Position numbers and translations under genes: made by a program
The notes under the pieces: generated by a model
Databases searched by the model: none
Told to the model about the DNA's origin: nothing
Seen by the model: the letters and a program-made list of their open reading frames with translations, nothing else
Part shown: piece after piece, positions 1,878 to 43,522 of the stretch
Numbering within the stretch: position 1 is the first letter of the stretch
Layout: every line of letters starts with the position of its first letter
Source: a virus
Strand: one strand, 5' to 3'
Length of the DNA: 43,719 nt
Virus record (IMG/VR): IMGVR_UViG_3300045988_022668
Coordinates: 1 to 43,719 of that record

Positions 1878-1901
1878 TTGGAAATTGGAGGCGGATATAC
1901 C

Positions 1902-2453
1902 ATGTCAGCGATCCAGGAGCTTGCCCCGTATATCGAGGCGTATCCCCGGCGGGTGCGTGCCGCCAAGGAGGAGAAGCACTACACCATCAGCGATATCATT
2001 GAGCGCTCCGGCGTCTCGGCCTCAGCTGTCAACAAGCTGCTGGCGGGAACGCAGATGGAGCCAAAGCTCTACAACTCGGCGGCCCTCTGCAAGGTCCTGG
2101 GCCTCTCCCTGGACGAGCTCTTCGGCCTCACCGCCCCGGAGGGCAGCGACCGGCAAGCCCGAGAGGAGATACACCAGCTCCAGCTGGAAAATGTCCGCCT
2201 GGAGGCGGAGAATCGCATGGGGGCGGAGCGGGTGGACGCCCAGCGCCCGGTGATCCTTGCCCTGCTGATCCTCTGCACCGCTCTCTGCGCGGCGCTGGCC
2301 GGCTACATCGCCATCGACGCCCAGATCAGCAACGCCGGTCTGATCCAGGGCGGAGACCCCACCGTTGTGGCATGGGGCATCATCGTCCTGCTGGTCCTGG
2401 CCGTCGCCGTCATCGCCTGGGCCATGGTCCGCGCTATCCGGCGAGGAAAGTGA
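1902..2453 (+). CDS. XRE-type HTH regulator with coiled-coil and two C-terminal TM helices (183 aa)
   Basis: ATG at 1902 follows GGAGGCGG. The track ORF from 1683 is an unsupported N-terminal extension. HTH: YTISDIIERSGVSASAVNKLLAG. Hydrophobic: PVILALLILCTALCAALAGYIAI and VVAWGIIVLLVLAVAVIAWAMV. Stop lies 2 nt before the integrase ATG. Confidence 0.75.
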   Translation: MSAIQELAPYIEAYPRRVRAAKEEKHYTISDIIERSGVSASAVNKLLAGTQMEPKLYNSAALCKVLGLSLDELFGLTAPEGSDRQAREEIHQLQLENVRLEAENRMGAERVDAQRPVILALLILCTALCAALAGYIAIDAQISNAGLIQGGDPTVVAWGIIVLLVLAVAVIAWAMVRAIRRGK

Positions 2454-2455
2454 CG

Positions 2456-3535: not shown

Positions 3536-3538
3536 TGA

Positions 3539-3552
3539 TTTGTTAGTAACCG
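3539..3552 (+). repeat. 14-bp direct repeat TTTGTTAGTAACCG, copy 1 (candidate integrase arm-type site)
   Basis: Exact repeat of 3746-3759. The two copies bracket the tRNA-like fragment and its terminator. Confidence 0.5.
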
Positions 3553-3658
3553 CAAGCACACACAGACGCACAGGGCCGCACAAAGGCGGAAATAATGCGC
3601 CCTGTACGGCCCTGTGCGCTCCCATATCGTTCCGGTCCCGCTTGACGTGCAGGGGGTC

Positions 3659-23207: not shown

Positions 23208-24839
23208 TTAATCCTCCTGGGGAACCGTTGGAACGATGTGCGCCCCTTTTTTTGAGTAAATAATCATAATTCGCTTTGTGTCGTGGAATGCATCGCTTTC
23301 ATAATATTGCCCAATCACCCGATCCACGTTCGTATACTCTTTGATTTCCAAAGAACCATCTTTTCTGGTCTTTATGGCTATAGTTCCAGTCCCAGTATAT
23401 CTTCCTAAGATTTCCTGCGCTTCCTGCGCCGTAATGGTCATAATGCTCTGCGGCGTCTGTCCCTTCGCAAGTCTCTGCGCTCTGTACCGTTCAAATTCTG
23501 CCGTCCCTTCGATGTGCCGCGCCTGAACCTGTGGCCTGATTTTCGTAGAGATTTCGCCGCTGGTTATTCTTGCGTTAAGTATAGCAGTATTTTCCTTATT
23601 TTGCAACGCTGCTTCTGCATCACGCCGCGCTTTTAGCGCCTGTGCGGCAGCGTCGCTTTTAGCATCACCGTACAGCACCTTCAACCGTTCCGGCTGCTCC
23701 GGCAGGCCCGCCGCCTTGCTGAACTCCCGGTATTTGGCGTTCAGGCGGCGCAGTTTAATATTTGCTGCACGCGCATCATCGGTTAGCCCCGCATCTTTAT
23801 ACGCGTTTTTGATCCGCTTCTGCTTGCGTATGGTGCGCTCTATACGGCGCTGCATCTGCGTGGCCTCGTATGCGGTATATTTCTTACCGTCGTACTCGCA
23901 GCCTAAGCCGTCATCGATATGGGCAAGTTGATCGTCGGTATATGTGCGTTCAGATACGCCCTCCACCCAGGGATAGCGCCGGTGACGGCAGTTAGCGCCC
24001 TCCAGACCATCGACATATCCCAGACCGCACACTTCGTAAATGCTTGGGTAAATGTCGCCGCTGCGGGTGGAATAAACCTTGCCCTGCCAGTCTTTGTGCG
24101 AGGACCACGGAGACGGCCCCGGCTTATCACGCGCCCCGGCGTGGGCAGACACTTCATAATACGGCGTTTCCAAGTATTCCGCCGCTTGCTCCGCGTACTT
24201 ACTGCACAGCTGCGATACGCCTGTCATTACAGCCCTGCGCGCAGCTACGTCTACATGGTCACGGTGTCCGCTCTCATAGTCCACCACGCGCAGGCCGCCG
24301 CTTGCAAGCTCCCTAACGGCGTCTTTGATGGCTTGCCCATAAGAAATAGCCCCGCTTTCTACTTTCAATGTAGCGGCATCTAAAGCCCATTGGTACGCCT
24401 TTGCGGGGGGCAGCATCGTCCGCCCTGCGTCTACCAAAAACCCCATCGAAGCGGTGATGTTGCGGAACGCATCCTGCGTCTGCCGTCTGATTGCGTCAAT
24501 GGCAGTTGCATCTACCAGCACGTCAGGCTGTGTTACACGGGCAAGGTCTATGACCTCGGTGTAATACTTTTGGTTGCGCTCCACCACATCGTCTATCAGC
24601 TCGTTTAGCTTTTTCTCGCTTATGCTGGCACTCTGGCGTATGGCTTTCTCAATCTCTTTCAGGTCGATGCCGTGTGACCGCAGCGCCTTGATGTCCTGAA
24701 CCGTGACCTCGTTCAGCTCGTCCCGCAGCTTCAGGCGGGAGCATATCTCCATCAGAAGTGCGTCCTCAAGCCCACGGTACAGCTCTGCCAACTCTTCCGG
24801 CATGGCATCAAGTATTTCCGGCTGAAACGGATATTTCAT
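23208..24839 (-). CDS. MuF-like head morphogenesis protein fused to a C-terminal Ntox50-like toxin domain (543 aa)
   Basis: N-terminal two-thirds is typical of SPP1 gp7/MuF proteins and sits after the portal region. C-terminal ARHIEGTAEF...RYTGTGT...VIGQYY...IIYSKKGAHIVPTVP matches my recollection of the polymorphic toxin type 50 pattern. Confidence 0.7.
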   Translation of the reverse strand: MKYPFQPEILDAMPEELAELYRGLEDALLMEICSRLKLRDELNEVTVQDIKALRSHGIDLKEIEKAIRQSASISEKKLNELIDDVVERNQKYYTEVIDLARVTQPDVLVDATAIDAIRRQTQDAFRNITASMGFLVDAGRTMLPPAKAYQWALDAATLKVESGAISYGQAIKDAVRELASGGLRVVDYESGHRDHVDVAARRAVMTGVSQLCSKYAEQAAEYLETPYYEVSAHAGARDKPGPSPWSSHKDWQGKVYSTRSGDIYPSIYEVCGLGYVDGLEGANCRHRRYPWVEGVSERTYTDDQLAHIDDGLGCEYDGKKYTAYEATQMQRRIERTIRKQKRIKNAYKDAGLTDDARAANIKLRRLNAKYREFSKAAGLPEQPERLKVLYGDAKSDAAAQALKARRDAEAALQNKENTAILNARITSGEISTKIRPQVQARHIEGTAEFERYRAQRLAKGQTPQSIMTITAQEAQEILGRYTGTGTIAIKTRKDGSLEIKEYTNVDRVIGQYYESDAFHDTKRIMIIYSKKGAHIVPTVPQED

Positions 24840-25455
24840 TCGCTTTCCTCCGTTTCACAATATCGTCATAGTGCGGCTTTACTCGAATTACATTCCAGTC
24901 GCATTCCTCCGGCACTTTTCCGTAGAATATCACCCATTCCGGCGACAGCCGTTTCATCATTTCTTCGTAGCCGCGCAAAAACAGCCGCTTGCTTTCCTTG
25001 TTCTGCTGTGTTCCTACCGAACTGACAGCCACAACACCGCCAACGGGATCACCATCAAAGCACCAATCGTAACTGCTCTCATCGCTCCATGAGATTGAGG
25101 GATAGACTGTCATGCCACGCATTTGCCAATATGCCGCCAACCAGTGCTTGCGATAGTGGTTGTATATCTGCATCGCAAGCGGCATATCCGTGTATGTGGA
25201 GAAGTCCGGCGCGCACACCGCCGCAAACTGCGACAGTTTCGGAATGTATTTGTCCGGCGTGTTCCAATATCGAATGAACTGGTAATCGTCCACGAAGAAA
25301 TGCACAATCTTGCTTTTCGTGTCTTTCGCTGTGTAATGGTAATTCACGGGGACAAACTCACCTTGTGGGTATGTCTTGACCGGCTCGATCTGCGGAATAT
25401 CGTACTTGCCCACGCCGAGGAATGTGAACTTATCAAGATTTTCAAAGTTAATCAT
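24808..25455 (-). CDS. DUF4417-like protein (215 aa)
   Basis: HFFVDDYQFIRYWNTPDKY...APDFSTYTDMPLAMQIYNHYRKHWLAAYWQMRGMTVYPSISW matches the remembered DUF4417 pattern. Start at MINFENL. Lower GC than its neighbours. Confidence 0.6.
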   Translation of the reverse strand: MINFENLDKFTFLGVGKYDIPQIEPVKTYPQGEFVPVNYHYTAKDTKSKIVHFFVDDYQFIRYWNTPDKYIPKLSQFAAVCAPDFSTYTDMPLAMQIYNHYRKHWLAAYWQMRGMTVYPSISWSDESSYDWCFDGDPVGGVVAVSSVGTQQNKESKRLFLRGYEEMMKRLSPEWVIFYGKVPEECDWNVIRVKPHYDDIVKRRKANEISVSAGNT

Positions 25456-25469
25456 AAATCCCCCAGCAA

Positions 25470-25509
25470 ACAAAAATGCCGCAAGATACATTTCTGTACC
25501 TTACGGCAT
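25470..25509 (-). terminator. Rho-independent terminator upstream of the DUF4417 gene
   Basis: Minus strand: AUGCCGUAAG-loop-CUUGCGGCAU (10 bp, including one G-U pair) followed by UUUUUG. Confidence 0.6.
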
Positions 25510-25568
25510 AGCAAGCGCCCGGATTCTAACCGGAGTTCCCGCAGTCACGGTGTAATCACCCTATACGA

Positions 25569-25955
25569 CTACTTGCTATGCCTATTATACCAAGCCTTTT
25601 TTACGAATGCAACCAGCTTCTTTTCATCCGCAGTCAAGCCCCTTGTGCCGCCCTCATCGTGATAATACCCGATGTGCGTGTGCTCTCCCTTGAATTGTTC
25701 ATGGCTATGTAAGAGATTGATTGTTTTTACGCGCTTTCCATCTGCACCGTAATAGCTGATTGCATTTATTTTGCCCTCATCGTTTATCGTTGCGTAAATG
25801 CGCCCTTTGGTCATAGTTTCCAATGGGTCTTTTGCGTTCAATGCCGCATTTTGCTTTACAAACTTTACGTTCCCAGCTTTTAAAAGTGTCCTAAACTCGC
25901 TCCCGTAAGGCTTGCCCTTTTCGCTCATGCCGCTACTTGCGCCGCGTCCGCCCAT
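25569..25955 (-). CDS. Hypothetical protein starting MGGRGASSG (128 aa)
   Basis: TAATG coupling to the upstream gene. Motifs KGKPYGSEFRTLLKAGNVKFVK and HTHIGYYHDEGGTRGLT. Confidence 0.6.
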   Translation of the reverse strand: MGGRGASSGMSEKGKPYGSEFRTLLKAGNVKFVKQNAALNAKDPLETMTKGRIYATINDEGKINAISYYGADGKRVKTINLLHSHEQFKGEHTHIGYYHDEGGTRGLTADEKKLVAFVKKAWYNRHSK

Positions 25956-26494
25956 TAAACAGGTCTCCATGTACCGCTGCGCTTGTTAGCCCTGCGGTAT
26001 TTCTTGCCGTTTACCGTAACTTCCAACGCGCCGGACTTTTGCGCTGTTACAAAGGCATTGGAAAATGCCTTGTTTTCTGCTGCTTTTCGGTTTTTACTGG
26101 ACTGGTCACGCAATTTCCGCATGTAGCTATCCATTTCACCGCGCGCTCTTGCAGCTCTGTCTGCGGCGCTTCCTGTTTTCTGCGCCGTTGTCAGGCGTGC
26201 AGGCCCACTTGCATAAGGATTGACTGCTCCTGCCGCCGTTTTGAGCGCCGTTGTTGCGAGAGTTGCCATCTGCTTTACGGCGTCTTTCTTTTCAGCGTCC
26301 GACAGCGAAAGCCCATTGATTTCAGCAGCGTTGCGCTCAAATGTGCGCCTGATAATATCGCCCATATCAGTGACAGACGCAGCGTTTGCTCGGTTAATAT
26401 CCTGCTGTGACAAAAACCGCGCAAGGCTCATACCGCGCCCACGCCCAAATTCTCCGGCTCCAATGCCGCCACCAGCTCCGCCTCTGCCGCCCAT
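25955..26494 (-). CDS. Hypothetical protein starting MGGRGGAGGG (179 aa)
   Basis: TAATG coupling to the portal stop. Basic and helical. Confidence 0.6.
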   Translation of the reverse strand: MGGRGGAGGGIGAGEFGRGRGMSLARFLSQQDINRANAASVTDMGDIIRRTFERNAAEINGLSLSDAEKKDAVKQMATLATTALKTAAGAVNPYASGPARLTTAQKTGSAADRAARARGEMDSYMRKLRDQSSKNRKAAENKAFSNAFVTAQKSGALEVTVNGKKYRRANKRSGTWRPV

Positions 26495-27924: not shown

Positions 27925-29159
27925 GCTATAACTCCCATCTGGCGAGAAATACGCTCTAAAGCGTATCTTGTGGCATCAATCAAATGGTTATTTGCATCAG
28001 GATACCCGCTGATGATGTCGCCGTCTTTATTCCGTTCGTATTCGTAATTCACGAACTCGTTATATGCGTTTGGTGTCCGACGGCGGTCAATGACAATCTT
28101 GCGCCGCTGTAGCCACTTCATACCGTAGTCAACAGAACCGGGGCCTTTGACCGCCGCCTTTGCTGGAAGCCCCATAGCGCGGTAGTCCGCTACACTCTTA
28201 GGCTCCGCGCTGTCGCAAGTAATATAAGCGTCTTTGTACCCGCGCTGGATGATGATGTTCCCGCTTGCCTCGTTTGTAAGCTTGTTTTGGTATATCTCAT
28301 CCATCAGATAGATAGTCTCCCGCGCTCTGTCGTAGTACAGCCGGATAAAAGCAAACGGGTCGGGGAACCAACCGTAGTCCACACCCTGATAGATTTGGTC
28401 GAAGTGCGACATTTCTTCGTCGGTAATTTCTCGCAGCTCCAAATTTTCAAACACATTGCCACCCGTGCCGACCGGAATGCCGAGGTATTCGTGCTGATAT
28501 GCTCGCTCGTCCGTCTCTTTGAGGTGTTCTGCCTCGTCGATAAACTGCTGCCCCAGCCACTCAGGCGGCGCTTGCAGGTACGTTGACTTGTGGCACAGGC
28601 GGTCGGCGCGTTCCTCCAAGCTGTCTTTGTTCGCCCAGTTGTCGCGCGAAATCGGTGGGTTATAACTTTCAAAATTCCAGAACACCGAGCCGCCGCGCAT
28701 AGTCGACTGCAAAATGTTTCGGATTTCTGCACGTCCGGCAAACTGGTCTTTTTCCTCAAAGTGCGTCACGGCGATATAGCCAAACGGCACCTTGATAGAC
28801 TTGATCTTCATCGGGTCATCCGCGCCGCGAAACATGATCTTCTGCCCCGTCGGCTTATAAATCAGCTCCATCGGGGAAACCTTGGCTTCCCAATACGCCG
28901 CCATGCCCAGCTCACCGATTGCCCAAATATACTGGGCGTACACGCTATCGCGGATCGTGTTTGCTACCTTGCGCAGAACAAGTGCGTGCGTGCCGGGATT
29001 GCTGACCAGCAAAAGCGGAACAATAATTGATACTGCGGAAGATTTCAACGAGCCGCGCCCGCCGCTAAAATCGTAATGCGTATGACCGTGGTGGAACACG
29101 TCATGCGCCACGTCGTAGAACGCAGAGCCGATTTTTTCAGACAGGCGGATGTCAGACAT
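27921..29159 (-). CDS. terL: Terminase large subunit (PBSX/Terminase_3-type), 412 aa
   Basis: Walker-A-like FSGGRGSLKSS. Nuclease-half motifs (ITCDSAEPKS, HLIDATRYAL). ATG at 29159; the track start at 29162 is a TTG one codon upstream. Confidence 0.9.
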   Translation of the reverse strand: MSDIRLSEKIGSAFYDVAHDVFHHGHTHYDFSGGRGSLKSSAVSIIVPLLLVSNPGTHALVLRKVANTIRDSVYAQYIWAIGELGMAAYWEAKVSPMELIYKPTGQKIMFRGADDPMKIKSIKVPFGYIAVTHFEEKDQFAGRAEIRNILQSTMRGGSVFWNFESYNPPISRDNWANKDSLEERADRLCHKSTYLQAPPEWLGQQFIDEAEHLKETDERAYQHEYLGIPVGTGGNVFENLELREITDEEMSHFDQIYQGVDYGWFPDPFAFIRLYYDRARETIYLMDEIYQNKLTNEASGNIIIQRGYKDAYITCDSAEPKSVADYRAMGLPAKAAVKGPGSVDYGMKWLQRRKIVIDRRRTPNAYNEFVNYEYERNKDGDIISGYPDANNHLIDATRYALERISRQMGVIA

Positions 29160-29478: not shown

Positions 29479-29581
29479 ACGCGCCCTCCTTTCTCTTCTG
29501 GCGTTTGATAAACTTCTCCATGTCCCGTTTTAGGTGCGGACTATTTGTTTTTGCAATGATCGCCTGCGCTTCTTCAATCGT
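29408..29581 (-). CDS. Possible small ORF (57 aa) overlapping the methylase stop and the terS start
   Basis: The ATG overlaps the end of the methylase gene. The N-terminal part MTIEEAQAIIAKTNSPHLKRDMEKFIKRQKRKEG looks protein-like, but the last 70 nt or so overlap terS out of frame. Confidence 0.25.
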   Translation of the reverse strand, partial: TIEEAQAIIAKTNSPHLKRDMEKFIKRQKRKEGAYGKAKKGNRPEAIREPLRPAMHA

Positions 29582-30767
29582 CATGCAGGAGCACCGCTTT
29601 CTTCCCGGTAAACTTCTCCCACCGGTCAACAATGACGTCGGCATACTTCGGATCATACTCCATGCAGAAAGCGTGTCGACCATTCTGCTCCGCTGCCATG
29701 ATCGTTGTGCCGGAGCCAGCAAACATGTCGAGCACATTCTCTCCCGGCTTGCTGGAACACTGCATCTGGTAGTCAAACAGCTTAATCGGCTTCATGGTCG
29801 GATGCTCCGCAGACTTTACCGGCTTATCAAAATTCAGGACGGTTGTCTGTCTGCGGTTCTTAAAGAAGTAGTGCTTCTTGCCTTCCGTCCATCCGTAAAG
29901 GCAAGGCTCGTGCGCGTCCTCTTCAATCTCATTCTCGCCATACAGGCAAGGTTCATGTTTCCACTGGAAATCCTGTCTCCCCATCACAAGAGAATTCTTC
30001 ACCCAAATCAGGCACTGCCGGACGCGAAGCATCGCATCTCTGCACGCCCCACGGAAGTTATACCCTTCGCTATCTGCGTGCCAGATGTAAAACGGTGCGC
30101 CAGGTTTCATGACCATCGCCGCATTGGAAAACGCATCCGTCAGAAACCGTCTAAACGCCGTATCCTCCATGTTGTCGTTCTTAATCTTTCCGGCGGTTCC
30201 CTGATAGTCCACATTGTACGGAGGGTCGGTGAGCAGCAAATCCATTTGTGCCCCCCCCACGAGCGTCTGTACGTCTGTCAAAGACGTACTGTCTCCGCAC
30301 ATCAGCCGATGGTCGCCAAGCTGGTACACATCGCCCAGTTTGCTCTTTGGCTCTGCCGGCAAAACAGGATCGTAGTTGTCCTCTACGACTGACGTGTCAA
30401 GTTCATCTCGCAATCCCCAATCAAAATCAAAAGCAGACAGGTCAAGACCAGGCAGCTCCTCGGCCAGCAAATCAAAGTCCCAATCGCTCTCGTTGCTCTT
30501 GTTATCCACCAACCGCAGGGCGTTCACCTGCTCCGGTGTCAGATCGTCCACACAGACGCACGGCACTTCTTCCATGCCAAGCTTCTTTGCCGCCATAGCG
30601 CGGCAGTGGCCGATTACAATCACGCCGTCACGGTCAATCACAATCGGCTGCACAAATCCGTACTGCTTGATGCTCTCCGCAACGTTGTTGATTTGCCTCT
30701 TATCATGCTTTTTTGCGTTAGTCGCATACGGAACAATGTCCGCAAGCCGCCGTTTTGTGATTTCCAT
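29574..30767 (-). CDS. ParB-like nuclease domain fused to a beta-class N6A/N4C DNA methyltransferase (397 aa)
   Basis: N-terminal ParB-N-like IKQYGFVQPIVIDRDGVIVIGHCR. Methylase motif IV TDPPYN precedes motif I DMFAGSGTT. AGGAGGAAGG SD. Confidence 0.85.
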   Translation of the reverse strand: MEITKRRLADIVPYATNAKKHDKRQINNVAESIKQYGFVQPIVIDRDGVIVIGHCRAMAAKKLGMEEVPCVCVDDLTPEQVNALRLVDNKSNESDWDFDLLAEELPGLDLSAFDFDWGLRDELDTSVVEDNYDPVLPAEPKSKLGDVYQLGDHRLMCGDSTSLTDVQTLVGGAQMDLLLTDPPYNVDYQGTAGKIKNDNMEDTAFRRFLTDAFSNAAMVMKPGAPFYIWHADSEGYNFRGACRDAMLRVRQCLIWVKNSLVMGRQDFQWKHEPCLYGENEIEEDAHEPCLYGWTEGKKHYFFKNRRQTTVLNFDKPVKSAEHPTMKPIKLFDYQMQCSSKPGENVLDMFAGSGTTIMAAEQNGRHAFCMEYDPKYADVIVDRWEKFTGKKAVLLHDD

Positions 30768-34288: not shown

Positions 34289-34429
34289 CTAACTTGTCTT
34301 CCCGTCCGCAACCACCTGCACCACACGGACATTCCCAAGCGGTTCCAGCATCATAGCTACGGATTCCTTTGCCGCCATGTAATCGTCTACCCCGTAGACG
34401 TCTACCACCACACGCACATGGTCAACCAC
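34289..34429 (-). CDS. Possible small ORF (46 aa, GTG start), below the ORF-track cutoff
   Basis: GGAGGTGG before the GTG, which overlaps the DnaC-like stop. Its own stop overlaps the SD of the next gene. Confidence 0.35.
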   Translation of the reverse strand: MVDHVRVVVDVYGVDDYMAAKESVAMMLEPLGNVRVVQVVADGKTS

Positions 34430-35144
34430 CAGCCACCTCCCGCAGCCGCCAGTTCTGCTTGCTGCGCAGGTTCAGGGTGTACTCTCTGGCCCGCTCGGCG
34501 ATCCGGCTTCCGATGGCCTCATCCCACGATAGGATCTTATCGATGGGCCACTCCGTGGAGATAATCGTGATAGCGTCCGGATTTGCGTACCTGGCGTTTA
34601 GCAGATCAAAAGCGATGTTTTTGTCCGCCTCCGTAACCGAGCCCTTGAGGAAATCGTCTATGTACAGGGCTCGTACCGTTTTCAGCGGCCAGATGGCCTC
34701 GTGGTACGCCTCTGCGTCGTTGACTTTGGCCTTGATGGCTGGAATATCGCCACGCCACTGGACGTACCGGCAAGGGACGCCGCCCGCCATCAGCTGCCCG
34801 CAGATCGCCGTACAAAGATGGGTCTTCCCGGTGCCGGAAGATCCGCCGATGAAAAACCACTTCCCACGGCAATCCGTCAGATACTCTTCCGCCGCCTGTT
34901 TTGCGGCCCGCTGCCATGCCTCCGGCGTCTGGAACGACGCAAAATTGCATCGCTCCAGAAGCCCCGCCAATCCGGAGCGCTGGATGCGCCTCCGATTCTG
35001 CCGGACGATCTCGCACCGGCACGTCCGGCTTACCAGCTCTCCCGTTTCGGTCCGGGAAACGGTATAACCCAGCCCATCACAGAGCGGGCAAGGCTCAGAG
35101 GTCTCGTCCCACGTTGCGGTATTCAGGCTTCCCTTGCTGTCCAC
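34422..35144 (-). CDS. DnaC/IstB-like AAA+ helicase-loader protein (240 aa, GTG start)
   Basis: Walker A GGSSGTGKTHL and Walker B LYIDDF. N-terminal CPLCDG...CRC zinc-like motif. GGAAGGAGGAAA SD before the GTG at 35144. Confidence 0.8.
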   Translation of the reverse strand: MDSKGSLNTATWDETSEPCPLCDGLGYTVSRTETGELVSRTCRCEIVRQNRRRIQRSGLAGLLERCNFASFQTPEAWQRAAKQAAEEYLTDCRGKWFFIGGSSGTGKTHLCTAICGQLMAGGVPCRYVQWRGDIPAIKAKVNDAEAYHEAIWPLKTVRALYIDDFLKGSVTEADKNIAFDLLNARYANPDAITIISTEWPIDKILSWDEAIGSRIAERAREYTLNLRSKQNWRLREVAGG

Positions 35145-35856
35145 AGCTTTCCTCCTTCCCGTAAACTCCGCCACGGTCCTGCTCCTTCGAGAGCCACGTG
35201 ACGATAAACCGATTAATCCCGCTTTTCGTCTTTTTCTTGCGAGGATTGGCAATCAGCCACGCCCTCATTTGCCGAAGCTGCTGTATCACGTCGACAGCAG
35301 GGTACAGGCCCGCCCATTCATGGCACTGCTCCTGAGAGACCGGATATTCGGTCCCATCATTCAGCGGCAAAAAAATCACCGGCGGCATGGACGCCGCTTG
35401 CGGCTCCGTGCCTATAAACTTCGGATTCGGATTCGGATTGGATTCGGATTGGATTGGATTCAGGCCGCAGTCCGCCGCAGGTTGCGGCAAGTCGCCGCAG
35501 TCCGCCGCAGGTTGCGGCAAGTCGGCATTTTCAGGGCCAGGGTACTTAGGTTTGCAATCACGGATTCTCTGGTGCTTGGCCCAGCTCGGGAACGAATAGT
35601 AGGGCCTCCCGCCTACAGTGTAGAGGGTGACGCAGCTAACCGCCGCCAATGCGTGAAGCGCAGCACTGATATCCTTTGTTGTTGCCCTTTCCCGAAACGG
35701 GAAAACGTGCCCCTTGATGTAAGCAGGGCGGGCGTCTCCGCGCCCTGCGTCATCTGCTTGAGTAATTAAGCCGACCCATAGCCGAAACTCAAAATCCGAA
35801 AGAGCCGCCAATTTCTCCGAATCGCAAATGCTCTCTTTGATTATTCTGTTCGGCAC
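35095..35856 (-). CDS. Replisome organizer / replication initiation protein (253 aa) containing internal DNA repeats
   Basis: N-terminal IKESICDSEKLAALSDFEFRLWVGLITQADDAGR is typical of the phage replisome-organizer N-terminal domain. Followed by the DnaC-like gene. Confidence 0.65.
   Translation of the reverse strand: MPNRIIKESICDSEKLAALSDFEFRLWVGLITQADDAGRGDARPAYIKGHVFPFRERATTKDISAALHALAAVSCVTLYTVGGRPYYSFPSWAKHQRIRDCKPKYPGPENADLPQPAADCGDLPQPAADCGLNPIQSESNPNPNPKFIGTEPQAASMPPVIFLPLNDGTEYPVSQEQCHEWAGLYPAVDVIQQLRQMRAWLIANPRKKKTKSGINRFIVTWLSKEQDRGGVYGKEESCGQQGKPEYRNVGRDL
35422..35523. repeat. Repeat cluster inside the organizer gene: about 7 x (G)GATT(C/G) hexamers (35422-35461) plus a 2 x 30-bp perfect tandem repeat (35464-35493 / 35494-35523)
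   Basis: Read directly. Unit GCCGCAGTCCGCCGCAGGTTGCGGCAAGTC occurs twice. Each unit contains GCCGCAG twice and an imperfect palindrome GCCGCAGGTTGCGGC. Confidence 0.85.
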
Positions 35857-37111: not shown

Positions 37112-37712
37112 GAGCCCGTTCCTGCTGTTCCGCCTTCATACAGCCGCCGCAGAGCTCCGACCCGAATTTGAGTTTGCTATAAGTACACATGTCGGGTACG
37201 GTCCACAGGGTGCCGTCACGCTTTTCTACAGGCGTAATCTCCTTCCCGCATTTGGCGCATTTGGGAGGAATGGCCGCTTTCTTCTTGGCCGTGCTGGGCT
37301 CCGGCGTCTCTGCGTCGGGGTCCTTCATCTCCTCGGTGGGGATGCAAAAAACCTGGAAGAATGCGTACTTCATGGCGATAGACATTGCCTTGTTGCTTGC
37401 TTTGTCGCCGCTGTCCATGCCCTCTCCAATAACAACGGCGGAAACGGAGGTGCCGTCCTCGGCGTAGAAGCTGTACTTGATCCGCATCACGGAGTACATC
37501 AGCGTGCCGCCCTTGTTAGTCTGCCGCTCCTCCCGGCTCTGCTCCAGGACTTCCGGGACCACGAAAACCTTGTTTTTGGAGAGGATAGGTTGCAGAGCGT
37601 TCATTACATCATCAATGCCCCGATATTTAAAGCCATGCTGCTGGTTCTGCTTATCCTTTCCAATGGCCGGGATTTCCTGCATAATGGCGGCGATGCTCTC
37701 ATAGATGTTCAT
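37101..37712 (-). CDS. Erf-family single-strand annealing protein with C-terminal zinc ribbon (203 aa)
   Basis: MNIYESIAAIMQEIPAIGKDKQN...FKYRGIDDVMNALQPIL is a typical Erf N-terminus. C-terminal CAKCG...CGGC. ATG at 37712 overlaps the upstream TGA by 1 nt. Confidence 0.8.
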   Translation of the reverse strand: MNIYESIAAIMQEIPAIGKDKQNQQHGFKYRGIDDVMNALQPILSKNKVFVVPEVLEQSREERQTNKGGTLMYSVMRIKYSFYAEDGTSVSAVVIGEGMDSGDKASNKAMSIAMKYAFFQVFCIPTEEMKDPDAETPEPSTAKKKAAIPPKCAKCGKEITPVEKRDGTLWTVPDMCTYSKLKFGSELCGGCMKAEQQERAHAG

Positions 37713-38209
37713 CACTTCACCCCCAAGCTGAGGCCGGACACCAATTCCGCCCCGGGAACCGGCTCCGTCGCCATGATGCGCTTGAGCTCTGTCTTGGATA
37801 CCGTCGGGGCCTCATACTTCACGGCGTCCTCGTATCCATGGGTTTCCAGCCACTCCACCACCGTTCCCATATCCAGGATGTTCACGCTGGGAGGCGTCGC
37901 CCGGAAGGAAATCTTGCAGCGGGCGGATTCAAAATTCTCCCCGTGCAGAACGAAGGAGAGATAATCCTTCATTCGCTTCGCCTGGTTTTCCGCCACCTTC
38001 TGGCGGGCGGCGAAGACGTCCTTCTCCGCCTTGTAAGCGGCGGCGTCCGCCGTAAGGTTCTTGATGTAGCAAGCCAAATTCTCGATTTTCTTGGCCTTCT
38101 CCATTTCCAGCGCCTCGATTGCGCTGGTATCGGTGATTTCTCCCGTCTCCGGATCGATCAGCTTTTCGATCAAAGCGTCGATTGCCGGGTCAATTTCGTA
38201 AAGCTTCAT
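37712..38209 (-). CDS. Siphovirus Gp157-family protein (165 aa)
   Basis: MKLYEIDPAIDALIEKLIDPETGEI...KKIENLACYIKNLTADAAAYKAEKDVFAARQK matches the Gp157 pattern. AAGGAGGG SD. Confidence 0.7.
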   Translation of the reverse strand: MKLYEIDPAIDALIEKLIDPETGEITDTSAIEALEMEKAKKIENLACYIKNLTADAAAYKAEKDVFAARQKVAENQAKRMKDYLSFVLHGENFESARCKISFRATPPSVNILDMGTVVEWLETHGYEDAVKYEAPTVSKTELKRIMATEPVPGAELVSGLSLGVK

Positions 38210-38735
38210 TTGCCCTCCTTATAAACCAAATTCTTTACCTTGCAGTACTCCGCCTTTCCATTGCTCCGCAAGTCGATTCGATGCTATTCCGTCGCAACAC
38301 CTCTCCATGCTTTTCCATCACGTTGCGCTGCCAAACTGTTCCATTGCCTTCCGTTTCTTCCCGATGCCGACCTATTCCGTTGCTCTGCGTCTCTTGCCGG
38401 TTCTCTCCGTAGCTATTCCACCGCTCTGCATTTCTCTGCGTAACCTTGCGTTCCTATTCCGCCGCTGTTCTGTGTAATGCCACGCAGCGCCATTGCCAAT
38501 CATATCCAATCTCAACGCAGCTTTTCCGTTGCCGTGCTCCACGAAACCTCGCCTTGGCTAATCTTTCCCATGCCTTTCCCATGCGGCTCCCGGCGAAACG
38601 ACGCCCTTGCTGTTCCGTCCACAGCGAATGCGTTACCTAGCATCTCCATTGCCCATCATCGCTCGTCGATTCCATTGCAATGCCTCGCTAAACACTTCCC
38701 TTGCTACGCACGGCGGACAGGCGCCATCCCTTCGC
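38210..38735 (-). repeat. ORF-free, purine-skewed (minus-strand sense) array of about 16-18 degenerate GCAAYGGAA(UAG) motifs
   Basis: On the plus strand the motif (T/C)TTCC(A/G)YYGC recurs in one orientation at about 38255, 38286, 38312, 38338, 38374, 38415, 38456, 38523, 38563 and 38574 (perfect 11-bp tandem), 38612, 38643, 38669 and 38695. Counted pyrimidines: 44/60 in 38341-38400 and 45/60 in 38401-38460. Confidence 0.8.
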
Positions 38736-39326
38736 TTACAGCTCCTCCCAGCGGAATCTACCTTTCCCGCTGTTCCGCCACTGGCCGATGCCGGAAAAAC
38801 GGCCATAATCCAGCCACTCCCGGACGGCCTTCTCGTGATCGTCGCAGAGGCAGACAACGGTAAACTCGCACGTCGCCCCGGCGGGAATCTCCTCGCTCAT
38901 CGCAAGGCTGATGCGTTCACCCTGCGCCGTCTGCGCTCTCAGAGGGCGCTGACACTCACCGATTTTGCCATCAAACAGGAGAGGAATCGTTCTGGGCTCC
39001 GGGAAAATCAGCTTGTCGATTTCTTTCTTGTACGCCTTGATCTTCTCGCTTGCGGTCCCTTTCACCTTGCGAAGGCCGCCGCAGGTATCCTTGAAAAATC
39101 CCTTGATCTGGTAATCGTAGAGGAACGGCGTGCCATCATCCAGACGGGGGAATACCGTCATGCCCTTATCCGCCACAGCGTCAGCACCAAGAGCGGCGAC
39201 CTCATCCTCCACGCTCAAAGCGTCCGGGCTTTTACTGCCGATAAACTCCCGATAAACCTCAGGATTGGCCGGAGACGTCCCCAAGATGGGCTCCGTAAAT
39301 GTCAGATTGACCTTGATCTCCTTCAT
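38736..39326 (-). CDS. Hypothetical protein (196 aa) with RAMP-like sequence features
   Basis: AGGAGGA SD. MKEIKVNLTFTEPILGTS start, YQIKGFFKDTCGGLRK and C-terminal GIGQWRNSGKGRF Gly-rich loop (GhGxxxxxGxGxF pattern). Confidence 0.7.
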   Translation of the reverse strand: MKEIKVNLTFTEPILGTSPANPEVYREFIGSKSPDALSVEDEVAALGADAVADKGMTVFPRLDDGTPFLYDYQIKGFFKDTCGGLRKVKGTASEKIKAYKKEIDKLIFPEPRTIPLLFDGKIGECQRPLRAQTAQGERISLAMSEEIPAGATCEFTVVCLCDDHEKAVREWLDYGRFSGIGQWRNSGKGRFRWEEL

Positions 39327-39352
39327 GTTGTCCTCCTATTACTTCCCGTAAT

Positions 39353-39526
39353 TTAATCCGCCAAATGCCGGTACTCCCAGGCATCCAGCGTCTCCATGCA
39401 GTTCTCGCACCCCACAATGAGCCCGGCCCGATCCCGGTACAGCGTCTCGCACTCCTCGCCGCAGCAGGGGCAGCGGGGATTTTCTTCCGGCTCCGGCGGC
39501 TCCAATGGCCGCTCCGGAATATCCAT
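39353..39526 (-). CDS. Small zinc-finger-like protein (57 aa from ATG 39526; track start 39556 gives 67 aa)
   Basis: CPCCGEEC...CENC motif. The ATG at 39526 lies 1 nt after the upstream stop. Confidence 0.5.
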   Translation of the reverse strand: MDIPERPLEPPEPEENPRCPCCGEECETLYRDRAGLIVGCENCMETLDAWEYRHLAD

Positions 39527-39527
39527 A

Positions 39528-39863
39528 TCAAAGTGCAAGCTCATTGGTATCATCATTAATTCTCTGCCGCAATCGCTTCAGCTTGAAATTTTCCTCCTCG
39601 GTGGTATCGCCAAAAATGATAACAAGCTGATCAAGCATAATTCTGACATCAGCCATCTCTTCCCGCGCATCGGCTACAATCTCAGAAATATCATCGGAAG
39701 CAATATCGGCTCGAATGTACTTGGTAATAGCCTTTATAAGCTCGCTCATTTCTTCGATGGCCACAATAATTTGCATGTCAGCTCCATAGGTTGCAATCGC
39801 CATGCTTAAAATACGGCGCTTTTCTTCTGGCGTGATTTTCTCTTCCATTTCTTTCTCCTTCAT
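39528..39863 (-). CDS. MazG-like nucleotide pyrophosphohydrolase (111 aa)
   Basis: IIVAIEEMSELIKAITK...AREEMADVRIMLDQL matches the EExxE...ExxD pattern of small all-alpha MazG-family NTP-PPases. GAGGAGGA SD. Confidence 0.6.
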   Translation of the reverse strand: MKEKEMEEKITPEEKRRILSMAIATYGADMQIIVAIEEMSELIKAITKYIRADIASDDISEIVADAREEMADVRIMLDQLVIIFGDTTEEENFKLKRLRQRINDDTNELAL

Positions 39864-40066
39864 TTTTCGTCCTCCTCTACCCACACGACCCGATACTTAG
39901 AATGGCTCGTATGCTTTGCCTTTCCTCTCCGGCTAATAGCGGCGGCTACCGTGCCGCCGGTAACGCCAGCGATTCGGGCCAGCTCATCCATGGTATCCGT
40001 AACCGCAAGGGGTAGCTCGTACTCATCTTGGGAAACCAGCAGATACAGGGGCTTGCAACTATTCAT
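39860..40066 (-). CDS. Small HTH-like protein (68 aa)
   Basis: Start at MNSCKPLY, overlapping the upstream stop by 8 nt. DTMDELARIAGVTGGTVAAAISRRGK is HTH-like. Confidence 0.5.
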   Translation of the reverse strand: MNSCKPLYLLVSQDEYELPLAVTDTMDELARIAGVTGGTVAAAISRRGKAKHTSHSKYRVVWVEEDEK

Positions 40067-41141
40067 AGGCCACCCCAATAAAATCCAGCACTCTGGCGTA
40101 GCCCAAGCCCTTTTCAGTGGGCTTCCAAAAGCCGTCCGCCGGGTCGAAAGCGCCGCCTCCAACGCAAAAATCGTAGTGGCGGGGGTGAGTATGCTTCATC
40201 CTCTGGAAGCGATTCTCTCCCTTCTCCAGGTGCGCCCCGAAGCCGCAGAACATACAGCCCGTACGCTGACAGCCGGTACACCGGAGCGGTTGCTCCGTCA
40301 GGGTGCTGGTGTACTCGTTCTCTCCGTCGCTGGCCACAATGTCGCCGTAGACGCTGCAATAGGGGATCTCAGCACCAACAAGGTAGTGGAGCACGTCCTG
40401 CTCCGTCCAGAAGCTCATGGGCTTTCCCATCGGGCGCTTGCCGTCAAAAGCGTTACAGCCTGACGCCCGCCATTTCTGCATCCGTTGACGGCCTTCCGTC
40501 GCCATCGTCGCAACAATCGGCTTGTCCTTTGTTCCGCTTTCGTAGCGATGTAGTGTCCGTTTTTTCATCACACGACAGCATTCCGCAGAAATCAGATACG
40601 GAGCGTCCATCAGGAACTCCCAGTTGTCGCAGCAGTATGGGCTTTTTCGGCCATCTGGCGTCAGCAGCTCTCCGCGTATCCGCTTCGCTCTGGTCCCATC
40701 CGGGTCTCTCCGGGCCAGCCACACGCAGTTTGATACCTCTTTGCTCACGATGCTGTACCCGTATTTCGCCACAACCTGCCGGATGTTCAGCTTTGGCCGC
40801 AGACGGGCGAGATTGACCGCGACATGTGGGAACTCCTGCCGCAGCCAGCCAGCATAGTCGTTCACAAAGTGCTGGATTTCCGGATACTCCAGGCCCGTGT
40901 TAACGAACACCAGATTCAGCGGCCAGGGCGGCGTCCGGTAGCTGGCAAGATACCGGGCCACAAGGTAAGCCAAAACCGTGGAATCCTTGCCGCCGGAAAA
41001 GCTGACGTAGCACTTCCCGCCCCAGGCAGTGTACCATTGGTCGATCTTCTCCCAGGAGGCCAAAATCTTGTCCTCCAGCAGCAGCGCTAAGAGTGCCTTC
41101 GCCCGCTCGGGAGATATGGGGTCGTTATGCCATCCGGTCAC
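40059..41141 (-). CDS. PAPS-reductase/PP-loop ATPase family protein (IbrA/DndC-like), 360 aa, GTG start
   Basis: PP-loop SFSGGKDS. C-terminal Cys cluster CTGCQRTGCMFCGF...C. The GTG at 41141 overlaps the stop of the 58-aa ORF (GTGA). Confidence 0.8.
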   Translation of the reverse strand: MTGWHNDPISPERAKALLALLLEDKILASWEKIDQWYTAWGGKCYVSFSGGKDSTVLAYLVARYLASYRTPPWPLNLVFVNTGLEYPEIQHFVNDYAGWLRQEFPHVAVNLARLRPKLNIRQVVAKYGYSIVSKEVSNCVWLARRDPDGTRAKRIRGELLTPDGRKSPYCCDNWEFLMDAPYLISAECCRVMKKRTLHRYESGTKDKPIVATMATEGRQRMQKWRASGCNAFDGKRPMGKPMSFWTEQDVLHYLVGAEIPYCSVYGDIVASDGENEYTSTLTEQPLRCTGCQRTGCMFCGFGAHLEKGENRFQRMKHTHPRHYDFCVGGGAFDPADGFWKPTEKGLGYARVLDFIGVAYE

Positions 41142-41314
41142 CCTTTCCCCATCTCCTTCCTGATATCCCGCAGAGCCGCCAGGTAGCCTTCCCACCAGAT
41201 AATGCCCGTCGGGTGCTGCTCCATCAGGTACGGAGCGCCCTTCTGCGTCCTGGCGTAGTTTTCCATAGCGTCCAGCTTTGCCATAAGCTTGTCCTTCGTC
41301 GGGTTCCGGCTCAT
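41138..41314 (-). CDS. Small hypothetical protein (58 aa), below the ORF-track cutoff
   Basis: GGAAGGAGGAG SD. ATGA overlap with the methylase stop and GTGA overlap with the next start. Sequence MSRNPTKDKLMAKLDAMENYARTQKGAPYLMEQHPTGIIWWEGYLAALRDIRKEMGKG. Confidence 0.55.
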   Translation of the reverse strand: MSRNPTKDKLMAKLDAMENYARTQKGAPYLMEQHPTGIIWWEGYLAALRDIRKEMGKG

Positions 41315-42603
41315 GTGTGCTCCTCCTTCCAGGGCAATTCCCAGTCCGGAGCCCGAACCTGGAAGGCGTCGCCAAGCTGAATGGTCTCAGGATAGTTGTG
41401 CTGGGTGGTTGCGATAGCGTACTTGTCGATCTCGGTAGCGTAGTAGGCGGAAACGTCCGCGCCCAGCTTACCCAGGGCGATGTGACCGCAGCTCATGCCA
41501 TCGTACATAGATAGCACTTCCACCGGCTCCGCGGTCAGCCCATCGAAATGGCTCATAATATGGGCGATCACGTCCACGGTCCAGCCGTTGCCCAGCATTT
41601 TATATGCCTGGGTGTCGCTGACGGGGAAGGCGTATGTGTCCGGCACAGTCTGGAGGCGTTTACACTCGGTCACGGTCAGTTTGCGGATAATGTAGCAACC
41701 GTCTCGCAGTTTAATCGGGTATCGCTTGCCTTTAATGGCGATAAAGCCGTCGCGAACTTCGTATACGGGCCACGCTTTCCCATCCGGGCCGTCGACCGGC
41801 GTTGCATAAAGGCCCGTCTTGGCTCCCAGCCCCCCGCCGTTTCCGCAGAGGGTCACGCTCCTTCCGTCCGGCGAATAGACGCGGTATTGCTGGCTGTCAT
41901 GGTCCGGGTTCTTCGCGTCATTCTCGATAGTGCCGATGCGTACTGGTTCCGCGCAAATGTTATACGGAACGCCGCGATGCACATTTGCGGTGATGCAAAG
42001 CGCTTTGTCTGCCTCCCCTGGCTTTTGCAGATATGTCCAACGGTCGGAGTATTTGCCATGCGAGCCAACCATGTAATCCATTTCTCGCTCAGTCAGAGGA
42101 TTGATGGCAACGGGCTCCGCCACACCCATATAGCCAAAATGCCCATTCGTTTCGATGTGTCGCAAAACATTTGACACACCCTGTTTTGTCGCCGCGCTCG
42201 CTCTCAATGTGTACGCTTTCTCATGCCACGTCACAGCACCGCTTTCCAAAATGTCCCGCAGAAGGATACCACGGCCATCCGGCTGCTCCACGGGGACCTG
42301 GCTGTAGGTGCCGTCTGGGTTACGCTTGCCCACCCAATACAGGCGCTGGCGGTTCTGTGCGCTCACCAGGGCGCTGTTAATCAGGACAGGCTCCACGCCC
42401 AGCTCCGCCGTAATCTGTTCCCGGATAGCGGGGGACATGGATTTGTTGTTCTCATAGAGGAAGTAGTCCGGTTTGTATTTGTCGCGGGCAATGCGGTAGT
42501 TCAGGAACAGTTCCCAGCCGATGCCCTCCGCTTTGGTTTCCCTGTTTTTAGTCTGAGCGATACTCCAATGCGTGCAGGGCGAACCGCCGATTAAAAGCTT
42601 CAT
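41311..42603 (-). CDS. DNA (cytosine-5) methyltransferase with circularly permuted motif order (430 aa)
   Basis: Start MKLLIGGSPCTHWS (motif IV) after GAGGGGGGAG. Then YENNKSM (VI), SAQNRQRLYW (VIII), RKLTVTECKRLQTVP (IX), MLGNGWTV (X), and finally VLSMYDGMSCG (I), YATEIDKYA (II), IQLGD (III) at the C-terminus. Confidence 0.8.
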   Translation of the reverse strand: MKLLIGGSPCTHWSIAQTKNRETKAEGIGWELFLNYRIARDKYKPDYFLYENNKSMSPAIREQITAELGVEPVLINSALVSAQNRQRLYWVGKRNPDGTYSQVPVEQPDGRGILLRDILESGAVTWHEKAYTLRASAATKQGVSNVLRHIETNGHFGYMGVAEPVAINPLTEREMDYMVGSHGKYSDRWTYLQKPGEADKALCITANVHRGVPYNICAEPVRIGTIENDAKNPDHDSQQYRVYSPDGRSVTLCGNGGGLGAKTGLYATPVDGPDGKAWPVYEVRDGFIAIKGKRYPIKLRDGCYIIRKLTVTECKRLQTVPDTYAFPVSDTQAYKMLGNGWTVDVIAHIMSHFDGLTAEPVEVLSMYDGMSCGHIALGKLGADVSAYYATEIDKYAIATTQHNYPETIQLGDAFQVRAPDWELPWKEEHT

Positions 42604-42695
42604 CTCCCCCCCTCGATCCTGTCGATGAGCCGGAACACCCAGCTCGTGGCGGTAGAGGCCCCGATGATGACCAGCGCCAGCGTATATCCATCCAT
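42549..42695 (-). CDS. Possible small membrane peptide (48 aa), below the ORF-track cutoff
   Basis: GAGGAGGA lies 8 nt upstream of the ATG. MDGYTLALVIIGASTATSWVFRLI is hydrophobic. The 3' 55 nt overlap the methylase start out of frame. Confidence 0.3.
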
Positions 42696-42709
42696 TATGC
42701 TTGTCCTCC

Positions 42710-42916
42710 TCATTTCTTCGGCGTCGCCCGCATCTCGATCCACTCATCCAGGAGCCGGGTGAAGATCTGGTAGACCGGCTTGATGCCCCCCTGGATGCAG
42801 AGGCCGAAGGGGTAGAGCCCCTGCTGGATGCCGGCGCCCAGCGTGGTGTTGGTGATGCGCATACCGTGCTGCCGCAGGTACTCTGTGGCCTCGTTAAGCG
42901 ACATGGTCTCGATCAT
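42710..42916 (-). CDS. Small HTH protein, excisionase/MerR-like (68 aa)
   Basis: LNEATEYLRQHGMRITNTTLGAGIQQGLYPFG...IFTRLLDEWI resembles excisionase-type HTH proteins. GGGAGGAG SD. Confidence 0.5.
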   Translation of the reverse strand: MIETMSLNEATEYLRQHGMRITNTTLGAGIQQGLYPFGLCIQGGIKPVYQIFTRLLDEWIEMRATPKK

Positions 42917-42949: not shown

Positions 42950-43144
42950 TCATAAGTCCTCCCCGGCTATCGCCGCAACTGCAGCAGAAACCAACACCAC
43001 CAGAAGAACGAAAACGATGGCGAATAACGGGCTGTCCATTGTCCCAACGATCCGCTCTGAAACGAACATCAAAACGATGCCGACCGTGAAGATTATTACC
43101 AACAATGCGCAGAGAAACAAAAACCATTTGACAAACCGCTTCAT
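42950..43144 (-). CDS. Small two-TM membrane protein (64 aa)
   Basis: WFLFLCALLVIIFTVGIVLMFV and LFAIVFVLLVVLVSAAVAAIA. ATGA coupling to the cro-like gene. Confidence 0.6.
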   Translation of the reverse strand: MKRFVKWFLFLCALLVIIFTVGIVLMFVSERIVGTMDSPLFAIVFVLLVVLVSAAVAAIAGEDL

Positions 43145-43362
43145 GCGCCCTCACCCGCCCTTGCTTCCTGCGCCGCCCGGATGGCGGCGATGATCTCCTC
43201 GTCGGTGACGTGGTACAGCTTCGCCAGTTTGGGCACAAACTTGCTTGCGATGCCGTTGGCTCCTCGCTCCCACTGGGAAACGGCATTCTGGGAAACATAC
43301 AGCTTCCGTGCGACATAGGGCTGTTTCAGCCCCGCCGCCTCCCGGAGCTCCTTCAATGTCAA
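43141..43362 (-). CDS. Cro-like XRE-family HTH protein (74 aa, TTG start)
   Basis: AAAGGAGGG lies 7 nt upstream of the TTG at 43362. The track start at 43455 has no SD and adds a hydrophobic junk extension. HTH: LKELREAAGLKQPYVARKLYVSQNAVSQWERG. Confidence 0.75.
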   Translation of the reverse strand: MTLKELREAAGLKQPYVARKLYVSQNAVSQWERGANGIASKFVPKLAKLYHVTDEEIIAAIRAAQEARAGEGA

Positions 43363-43382
43363 ATGAAACCCTCCTTTCAATG

Positions 43383-43394
43383 TGAAGAACTTCA
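43383..43394. promoter_or_regulatory. 12-bp palindrome TGAAGAACTTCA (operator candidate); related TGTGAAGTTC at 43504-43513
   Basis: Perfect dyad next to the -35 of the rightward promoter and the cro-like SD. TGTGAAG recurs at 43381 and 43504, near the leftward transcription start. Confidence 0.4.
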
Positions 43395-43396
43395 GC

Positions 43397-43425
43397 TTGA
43401 CAAACAGTGATACGGCCGCTATTAT
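43397..43425 (+). promoter_or_regulatory. Rightward promoter TTGACA-17 nt-TATTAT
   Basis: -35 at 43397-43402 and -10 at 43420-43425, with a counted 17-nt spacer. Points toward the zinc-ribbon/HTH operon across the circular junction. Confidence 0.55.
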
Positions 43426-43522
43426 GTAAGTGTCAGCCAACAAAATATCGGCCATAGGCCCGCAGAACGGAGAAATCCGAGGGGGCTTGGTTTTTTGTTG
43501 CCTTGTGAAGTTCTATGTTGTT

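Follow-up and report, generated by a model that had tools for sequence, protein, structure and literature searches.

A Cas7-like RAMP gene and an adjoining register-shifted pentanucleotide array in a siphovirus-type genome: a candidate compact variant of the VIPR systems

Introduction

What does a phage keep in 526 nt of early-operon DNA that hold no gene, directly behind the gene of a RAMP superfamily protein? The question is raised by IMG/VR record IMGVR_UViG_3300045988_022668 (positions 1-43,719; this full stretch is called the window below), in which the interval 38210-38735 separates the gene of a 196-aa protein from a Gp157 gene. We find that the interval is an ordered array of pentanucleotides, linked to the same gene in the relatives of this phage. 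The 196-aa gene and the array are probably, at a rough probability of 0.8, a two-component, phage-encoded, RNA-guided module of the Viral Interference Programmable Repeat (VIPR) kind. The parts of the locus are the following:

38736-39326, minus strand: vipr-like gene of the 196-aa RAMP protein (open reading frame, ORF; no Pfam, PHROG, NCBIfam or PADLOC family)
38715-38735, minus strand: linker of 21 nt from the vipr stop codon to the first pentamer unit (from the sequence)
38209-38714, minus strand: array of 17 register-shifted vrRNA-like units (Viterbi segmentation)
38213-38220, minus strand: predicted ribosome-binding site AAGGAGGG of Gp157 (start 38209), which marks the 3' end of the array (from the sequence)
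37712-38209, minus strand: Gp157/Mu-Gam-like gene (Pfam and PHROG)

VIPR systems have been described in bioRxiv preprints of April-June 2026. As a class of RNA-guided DNA recognition they are proposed to predate CRISPR, and the work is not yet peer-reviewed. According to these preprints, a phage RAMP of ~20 kDa (Vipr) is flanked by non-coding RNA arrays of pentanucleotide repeats (10.64898/2026.04.26.720920). In type II, 9-16 pentamers (YNNGG) and a structured tail make up the vrRNA described there. Each pentamer is taken up by one Vipr protomer, which sequesters its GGY bases, the NN bases pair with double-stranded DNA with every third target base skipped, and competing phages and satellites are silenced (10.64898/2026.04.26.720920, 10.64898/2026.04.26.720927). 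The first preprint also gives alternative repeats (NNNGG, YNNNG and NNNNG; Methods, fig. S17, S18) and 'staggered' arrays, whose consecutive vrRNAs overlap by 1 nt, each beginning where the previous one ends. It distinguishes seven types and names only six accessory (vap) genes, and the systems presented there show no self-targeting (10.64898/2026.04.26.720920).

Register and units of the array

The sense strand of the interval has a marked five-base rhythm. Over the 526 nt the autocorrelation of G at lag 5 was +0.29, which is 6.7 standard deviations above base shuffles and more than in every other 526-nt stretch on both strands of the window. Within a 500-nt stretch of the array the value fell from +0.31 (lag 5) to +0.26 (lag 10) and +0.17 (lag 15), and a second series was found at lags 16, 21, 26 and 31. 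The coding control had no G periodicity at lag 5. As positive control we used the intergenic region of the reference locus, Escherichia phage SUSP1 (KT454805, Vipr at 28474-29061 on the minus strand, flanked by GGYNN tracts), which gave the same +0.29 as the window array, without +1 drift. Pooled over loci, the value was +0.43.

Units were called by a small hidden-Markov model (Viterbi segmentation), which resolves 38209-38714 on the minus strand into 17 head-to-tail units. A unit consists of n pentamers, each G-(C/A)-N-N-N, and then one extra G. Unit lengths are consequently 5n+1 nt (16, 21, 26, 31, 36 or 41 nt for units 1-16), and the register moves by +1 at each unit boundary. With the register so chosen, 93/94 pentamers have G at their first position. 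In unit 17 the register fades into the Gp157 ribosome-binding site. Applied to both strands of the 43.7-kb window, the same segmentation model detected no second array. The units, all on the minus strand, are:

U1 38699-38714, U2 38673-38698, U3 38647-38672, U4 38626-38646, U5 38605-38625
U6 38579-38604, U7 38553-38578, U8 38527-38552, U9 38491-38526
U10 38460-38490, U11 38419-38459, U12 38378-38418, U13 38342-38377
U14 38316-38341, U15 38290-38315, U16 38259-38289, U17 38229-38258

The junction of U12 and U13 (GCAAC-G/G-AATAG; 38373-38385, minus strand) serves as an example. Its motif, RGCAAYGGAAWAG, is a unit boundary: one unit closes with the pentamer GCAAY and the extra G, and the following unit opens with the pentamer GAAWR. 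Of the two adjacent Gs, each lies in its own register, with an offset of +1 between the two. A logo of 557 junction instances from 71 loci has a G each 5 nt on both sides of the GG, shifted by one. Only the unit ends are conserved, namely the last pentamer GCAAY with its G and the first pentamer GAAWR. In the window array, the degenerate junction repeats are 13-17 nt long with 76-85 % identity, at spacings of 41, 41, 57, 62 and 67. We conclude that the feature is real and non-random, and it looks functional.

An earlier, sequence-only reading of this DNA had noticed a recurrent motif, always in one orientation, in a 526-nt ORF-free interval between the two genes. The flanks and the interval were given correctly. 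All three sense (minus-strand) frames of the region contain mixed TAA/TAG/TGA stops, its largest sense-strand ORFs have 42-56 aa only, and the ORF 38633-38857 overlaps the upstream gene out of frame, being indeed a read-through of that gene in another frame. The motif is also real, and it is more ordered than was seen, as the 17 units attest. GC[AG][AG][CT]GGA has nine matches in the region, on the minus strand in every case. For the related pattern GCRRHGGMA the window has 36 occurrences (17 +/- 4.5 in shuffles), of which 8 sit in the 526 nt, on the minus strand throughout. A perfect tandem reported at 38584-38563 was recovered by TRF as the 11-nt repeat GCATGGGAAAG x2 (38563-38584), the sole TRF repeat. 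The plus strand had been described as about three-quarters pyrimidine in the two lines counted. The strand asymmetry holds, with a plus-strand GC skew of -0.34 to -0.40 across the region; the figure does not, since the sense strand has 66 % purine in the 526 nt (54 % in the whole window) and not ~75 %. Two long antisense ORFs lie opposite the array and the RAMP gene (38477-38863, plus strand, 128 aa, and 38607-39356, plus strand, 249 aa). Most likely, they are by-products of the strong strand composition bias.

Gene and array in related loci

The set of relatives comprised 80 loci of IMG/VR and 58 of GTDB species genomes (138 besides the window). Their hosts are mostly Oscillospiraceae and other Clostridia (metagenome-assembled genomes), with a few distant phyla, reaching Dehalococcoidia. 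When the region was compared with GenBank phages by blastn, the 196-aa gene aligned but the array did not. Those phages have ORF-free purine-rich DNA with the same motifs after the homologue of the gene, followed by different next genes. The array homology among relatives is architectural, not positional.

Across 71 non-identical loci, the 400 nt that follow the gene contain the motif GCAACGGA 96 times, where the rest of the loci would predict 0.9. Spacings from junction to junction in the relatives were 26, 31, 36, 41 and 46 nt; 284/382 were congruent to 1 mod 5, and 84/382 to 2 mod 5, as two units would give. In 130/138 other loci, with protein identities of 49-98 %, the array begins within a few dozen nt of the stop codon of the gene, the start lying at -5 to +25 nt from it. 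Nine loci have no downstream units, and at least five of them have an array directly upstream on the same strand. Upstream same-strand arrays were also seen in more distant loci (L088, L092, L097, L102, L104, L107, L109, L110, L117 and L141), some of which have arrays on both sides.

Clustering of the neighbouring genes (68 upstream and 63 downstream clusters) gave no conserved accessory gene. The biggest upstream cluster, a Cro-like helix-turn-helix (HTH) gene, is present in 41/130 loci, and the neighbour genes of the window itself recur in 1-26 of 138 loci. A Gp157 homologue was found in only 22/138 related loci, at varying positions; Gp157 is a neighbour in this phage, outside the module. 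Across the 139 loci, nothing but the 196-aa gene and the array is conserved as a pair. One proposal of the sequence-only reading, that the array serves the RAMP-like protein of the adjacent upstream gene as a platform for binding or processing, was thus essentially right. As a side observation, in L001 (3788-3982) and 40 other loci the vipr-like gene comes directly after a 64-aa Cro-like HTH gene, as the second gene of the early operon. The vipr-like gene of the window lies ~4 kb into the early operon, unlike in those 41 loci.

The content of the units is hypervariable. Among 1000 distinct units, G occupies position 1 of the pentamer in 93 %, C or A (51 % and 32 %) occupies position 2, and positions 3-5 are near background. 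As many as 863/1000 units were found in a single locus. Even the nearest relative (L004), whose protein is 98.5 % identical, has just 3/16 units in common with the window array. Related arrays differ by insertions, deletions and replacements of whole units, like CRISPR arrays. In several of them (L012, L017, L019, L020, L028, L032 and others) blocks of units are kept in the same order, with changes at both ends and internally; no obvious polarity was apparent in these unit changes.

The 196-aa protein

Further information about the module was obtained from the protein. Without a family in the four databases named above, it was modelled by AlphaFold2 with a pLDDT (predicted local distance difference test) of 89.9. 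The model has a single RRM, a beta-hairpin thumb (residues ~123-147) and a C-terminal G-loop, GIGQWRNSGKG, carried by the vipr-like protein as GIGQWRNSGKGRF. The top Foldseek matches of the model were type VII Cas7, Csm3, Cmr4 and Cas7-11 (E 1e-7 to 1e-5, TM ~0.57). In the PDB, a profile of 62 family sequences found type VII Cas7 (E 4e-6) as well as the G-loop of Csm4, and the nearest viral model in BFVD is named 'Cas system-associated RAMP superfamily protein'. According to its predicted structure, the 196-aa protein is a solitary, single-RRM, Cas7-like RAMP. Its family is very large: close clusters number at least 8000, those formed at 50 % identity number 1768, and the gene is carried by at least 591 IMG/VR contigs.

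Aligned by hhalign with SUSP1 Vipr, the family profile gave 85 % probability (E 6e-6, 167 columns). With a profile of 36 SUSP1-family sequences it gave 70 % (E 4e-5, 182 columns), full length and colinear. These alignments support, but do not prove, a distant homology of the 196-aa protein to Vipr.

SUSP1 Vipr reads the first G with H17 and D177; R138 of the thumb and W178 recognise the second G, and R179 the pyrimidine (10.64898/2026.04.26.720927). The aligned positions of the window protein are T17 for H17, Q182 for D177, W183 for W178 and R184 for R179, and Q182, W183 and R184 are nearly invariant across its family. Judging from this alignment, the putative contacts to the second G and the pyrimidine would be kept and those to the first G replaced. 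Such pocket changes would fit the repeat change from GGYNN to N-G-(C/A)-N-N. The pairing of T17/Q182 with the change from GG to NG is a structure-function prediction that can be tested.

Proposed mechanism and its weight

The proposal of a VIPR-like module builds on what was observed here for the protein (its predicted fold and probable distant homology to Vipr) and for the array (its pentamer register, unit structure, hypervariability and exclusive linkage to the gene). For transcription, processing, protein binding, DNA targeting and biological role we follow the analogy with the systems of SUSP1 and Pseudomonas fulva.

By this analogy, the array would be transcribed with the gene, in the early operon headed by the Cro-like gene 43141-43455 (minus strand). 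A promoter/terminator scan found neither element in the 21-nt linker or between gene and array; as no terminator or promoter separates them, the two are probably co-transcribed. One RAMP protomer would bind each pentamer, with the conserved G and the following C/A in the pocket of the thumb arginine and the G-loop Trp-Arg. Each unit of 5-8 pentamers could then form a short helical ribonucleoprotein filament of 5-8 protomers, roughly one turn of the SUSP1 type. The +1 slip at the GCAAY-G/G-AAW junction would break the continuity of the filament, and it probably marks the cut sites of the units or the boundaries of mature RNAs. We hypothesize that the variable pentamer positions are offered for gapped base-pairing with the double-stranded DNA of competing phages, satellites or prophages, and that transcription of the paired foreign DNA would thereby be blocked.

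As to how the bases would be read, pentamer positions 3-4 correlate best with codon positions 1-2, weakly (r = 0.42). Position 5 varies most within unit families, and positions 2-5 do not differ significantly (p = 0.37). We predict pairing through positions 3-4 with a 1-nt skip. Self-targets of the array in the window were not above chance.

Several points weigh against a VIPR-like module. Firstly, it departs from type II in its parts. Its repeat, N-G-(C/A)-N-N, has a single conserved G, against G-G-Y-N-N in type II; the units have 5-8 pentamers (about 21-41 nt) against 9-16 repeats; they lack a structured 3' tail, whereas type II vrRNAs carry a ~30-nt pseudoknotted tail and measure ~100 nt in all; and, unlike type II, the clade of the window has no conserved accessory (vap) gene. 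With regard to the latter, a vap gene may not be obligatory, given that seven types but only six vap genes are named in the preprint. Secondly, the sequence link to Vipr appears remote. Reciprocal hmmsearch between the two families was not significant (E about 1, Z = 1e6), so that plain hmmsearch does not connect them, and hhalign gave only 70-85 % probability. Thirdly, no target was found. When 28 pairing rules (read positions x 0-3 skipped bases) were applied to 754 units against 1.4 Mb, there was no excess over pentamer-shuffled controls and the top matches were of low complexity, and two exact gapped-pattern scans of IMG/VR with a 61-nt unit common to seven loci gave 0 matches; a 1.4-Mb database and exact-match scans are too limited for gapped guides of 10-16 nt. 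Moreover, with 3-6 variable pentamers per unit, specificity would be low under the published rule of 2 nt per repeat. Lastly, the scan yielded no promoter, terminator or processing signal for the array, whose 3' end has neither a 3' tail nor a terminator (sequence and terminator scan).

Whether the clade is a VIPR type beyond the published seven, defined by a single-G code, tail-less one-turn guides and at least 17 chained guides, is a more tentative matter, and we rather doubt it. If it were so, the array would be a set of multiplexed, short, transcription-factor-like, RNA-programmed DNA binders that work without an accessory protein. The pairing rule would then differ from the published 1-nt-skip rule, and the N-G-(C/A)-N-N repeat would match the loss of the two Vipr residues that bind the first G.

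Starting from raw sequence, our results show independently that gene and pentamer array form a real module with strict linkage. This module is exceedingly frequent among the phages of Oscillospiraceae and other Clostridia in human and animal guts. The variant packs 17 putative guides into about 500 nt, and its short tail-less guides would be attractive for engineering. Once its pairing rule is known, related arrays could be read as a record of phage-phage conflict in the gut.

Alternative explanations

The closest solved relatives of the protein are the Cas7/Csm3 backbone subunits, and phage-encoded RNA anti-CRISPRs and Cas mimics are known. The pair could accordingly act as an anti-CRISPR decoy, in which a viral RAMP and a pseudo-crRNA array trap Cas proteins of host type I/III systems, or as a Cas6-like RNase with its substrate. 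We consider this improbable, and it has no specific support. The array contains no repeat of >= 23 nt and no palindrome, its pentamer register is vrRNA-like and not crRNA-like (the periodicity of Cas7 being 6 nt), the family spans very different hosts irrespective of CRISPR type, and the full-length alignment is to Vipr. In this respect, the statement of the sequence-only reading that this is not a CRISPR array was correct in the strict sense, and the kinship to CRISPR RAMPs that it suspected is real. Near-identical direct repeats of ~23-50 nt with unique spacers are absent from the region, no CRISPR-type repeat was found in it, and among ~30 window ORFs scanned there is no cas gene besides the solitary RAMP.

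Repeats in a single orientation, in non-coding DNA of the early region that adjoins recombination and replication genes, could also be iterons. The array would then serve as a replication origin or an origin decoy, and the initiator that binds it might be the 196-aa protein itself. This had been the second proposal of the sequence-only reading, and the data speak strongly against it. The phage has its own initiator (35095-35856) and DnaC-like loader (34422-35252), 2.3-4.3 kb downstream. Iterons must match their initiator, yet the units differ almost wholly between phages with 98.5 %-identical proteins, and the unit lengths, 26-41 nt, have no helical phasing. The purine bias of one strand and the single-strand G register point to an element that acts as RNA, in line with the RNA-binding RAMP fold predicted for the partner protein. 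Furthermore, the region has a GC content of 50-55 % and no AT-rich block for unwinding.

Sponge RNAs of the CsrB/RsmZ type are defined by multiple GGA motifs, and the transcript, purine-rich, would carry 27 GGA triplets in 526 nt (roughly 25 by the first count). An RNA that sequesters host CsrA/RsmA through these triplets, the first proposal of the sequence-only reading, was thus a natural suggestion. We now hold it to be highly unlikely, since the GCAAY-G/G-AAW junction and the 5-nt G register account for most of the GGA triplets. Rfam returned nothing for the region even at E <= 10, CsrB/Rsm families included, and the search of the whole window at the gathering threshold had no match in the array region. 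Some motifs had been placed in hairpin loops, which is not borne out: the predicted fold of the region is no better than that of shuffles (minimum free energy z = -0.91) and gives no sign of GGA-in-loop hairpins. Nor would a sponge explain the 5n+1 quantisation, the hypervariable units or the obligate RAMP linkage across distant host phyla.

Finally, stop-codon reassignment or frameshifting might conceal a protein-coding gene. In its favour one may quote that the frame of the upstream gene holds just three internal TAGs before a TAA and that TAG recoding is known in gut phages. This reading has a negligible chance and was rejected: the other window genes read through in the standard code, the period is 5 nt, which the coding control lacks, arrays differ by units of 26, 31, 36 or 41 nt (5n+1, not multiples of three), and the region is not alignable between close relatives.

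Genome context

The window is a siphovirus-type genome with genes for terminase, portal, major capsid, tape-measure and endolysin. Its early operon, on the minus strand, runs from the Cro-like gene through a methyltransferase, a PAPS-reductase-like and a MazG-like gene to the RAMP gene and the array, and continues with Gp157, Erf, NinB, HNH, SSB and the initiator. Other features of the window are:

43141-43455, minus strand: Cro-like HTH gene
41311-42747, minus strand: C5 DNA methyltransferase
40059-41375, minus strand: PAPS-reductase/DndC-like gene
39528-39884, minus strand: MazG-like NTP pyrophosphohydrolase
39353-39556, minus strand: 67-aa CxxC zinc-ribbon protein
35095-35856: replication initiator
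34422-35252: DnaC-like loader
29574-30767, minus strand: ParB-methyltransferase fusion
538-990 and 1683-2453, plus strand: HTH (cI-like) genes

The early-operon genes at 39353-42747 and the ParB-methyltransferase fusion look like a counter-defence gene set. The Cro-like and cI-like genes stand at opposite ends of the window, which suggests a divergent lysis-lysogeny switch split by the ends. The split switch in turn suggests a circularly permuted or complete genome of temperate type. No integrase was identified among the window ORFs scanned, and the 440-aa ORF 2303-3625 has no family match. Rfam gave a gathering-level match, SpF41_sRNA (RF02435), at 25475-25581 on the minus strand (53.3 bits against a cut-off of 52), between the head-module ORFs 24808-25491 and 25569-25970.

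Comparison with known systems

CsrB/RsmZ-type sponge RNAs are likewise non-coding and rich in GGA triplets. Unlike them, the array has no hairpin-loop display and no Rfam match, keeps a strict pentamer register, and has a RAMP, not CsrA, as obligate partner.

The backbone of Class 1 CRISPR-Cas complexes (Cas7/Csm3/Cmr4 on crRNA, and Cas7 of type VII) offers the closest solved folds to the window protein. There, too, one RAMP protomer takes up a fixed step of RNA and the thumb interrupts the guide periodically, with a step of 6 nt as against 5 nt here. The window locus differs in being phage-encoded and in having no CRISPR repeats, spacers, Cas6, Cas5, large subunit or adaptation module. In our module the guide information would instead be interleaved with scaffold nucleotides.

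Type II VIPR, known from Escherichia phage SUSP1 and a Pseudomonas fulva prophage, is the nearest comparison. It likewise has a ~20-kDa phage RAMP with a single RRM, a G-x-W-R G-loop and a thumb, and non-coding same-strand pentanucleotide arrays that abut the gene, in which G-containing and hypervariable positions alternate. Both are without cas genes, CRISPR repeats and self-targeting. They differ in that type II vrRNAs are separate genes, whereas the units here directly abut with a +1 register slip, and the window protein aligns with type II Vipr at the profile-profile level only. The staggered arrays and alternative repeat classes of the preprint (10.64898/2026.04.26.720920), as far as their description goes, would both fit the window array. 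In summary, the 196-aa gene and its array are best filed as a compact VIPR variant, in which the pentamers have a single conserved G, the units are short, shifted in register and without a tail, and an accessory gene is absent.

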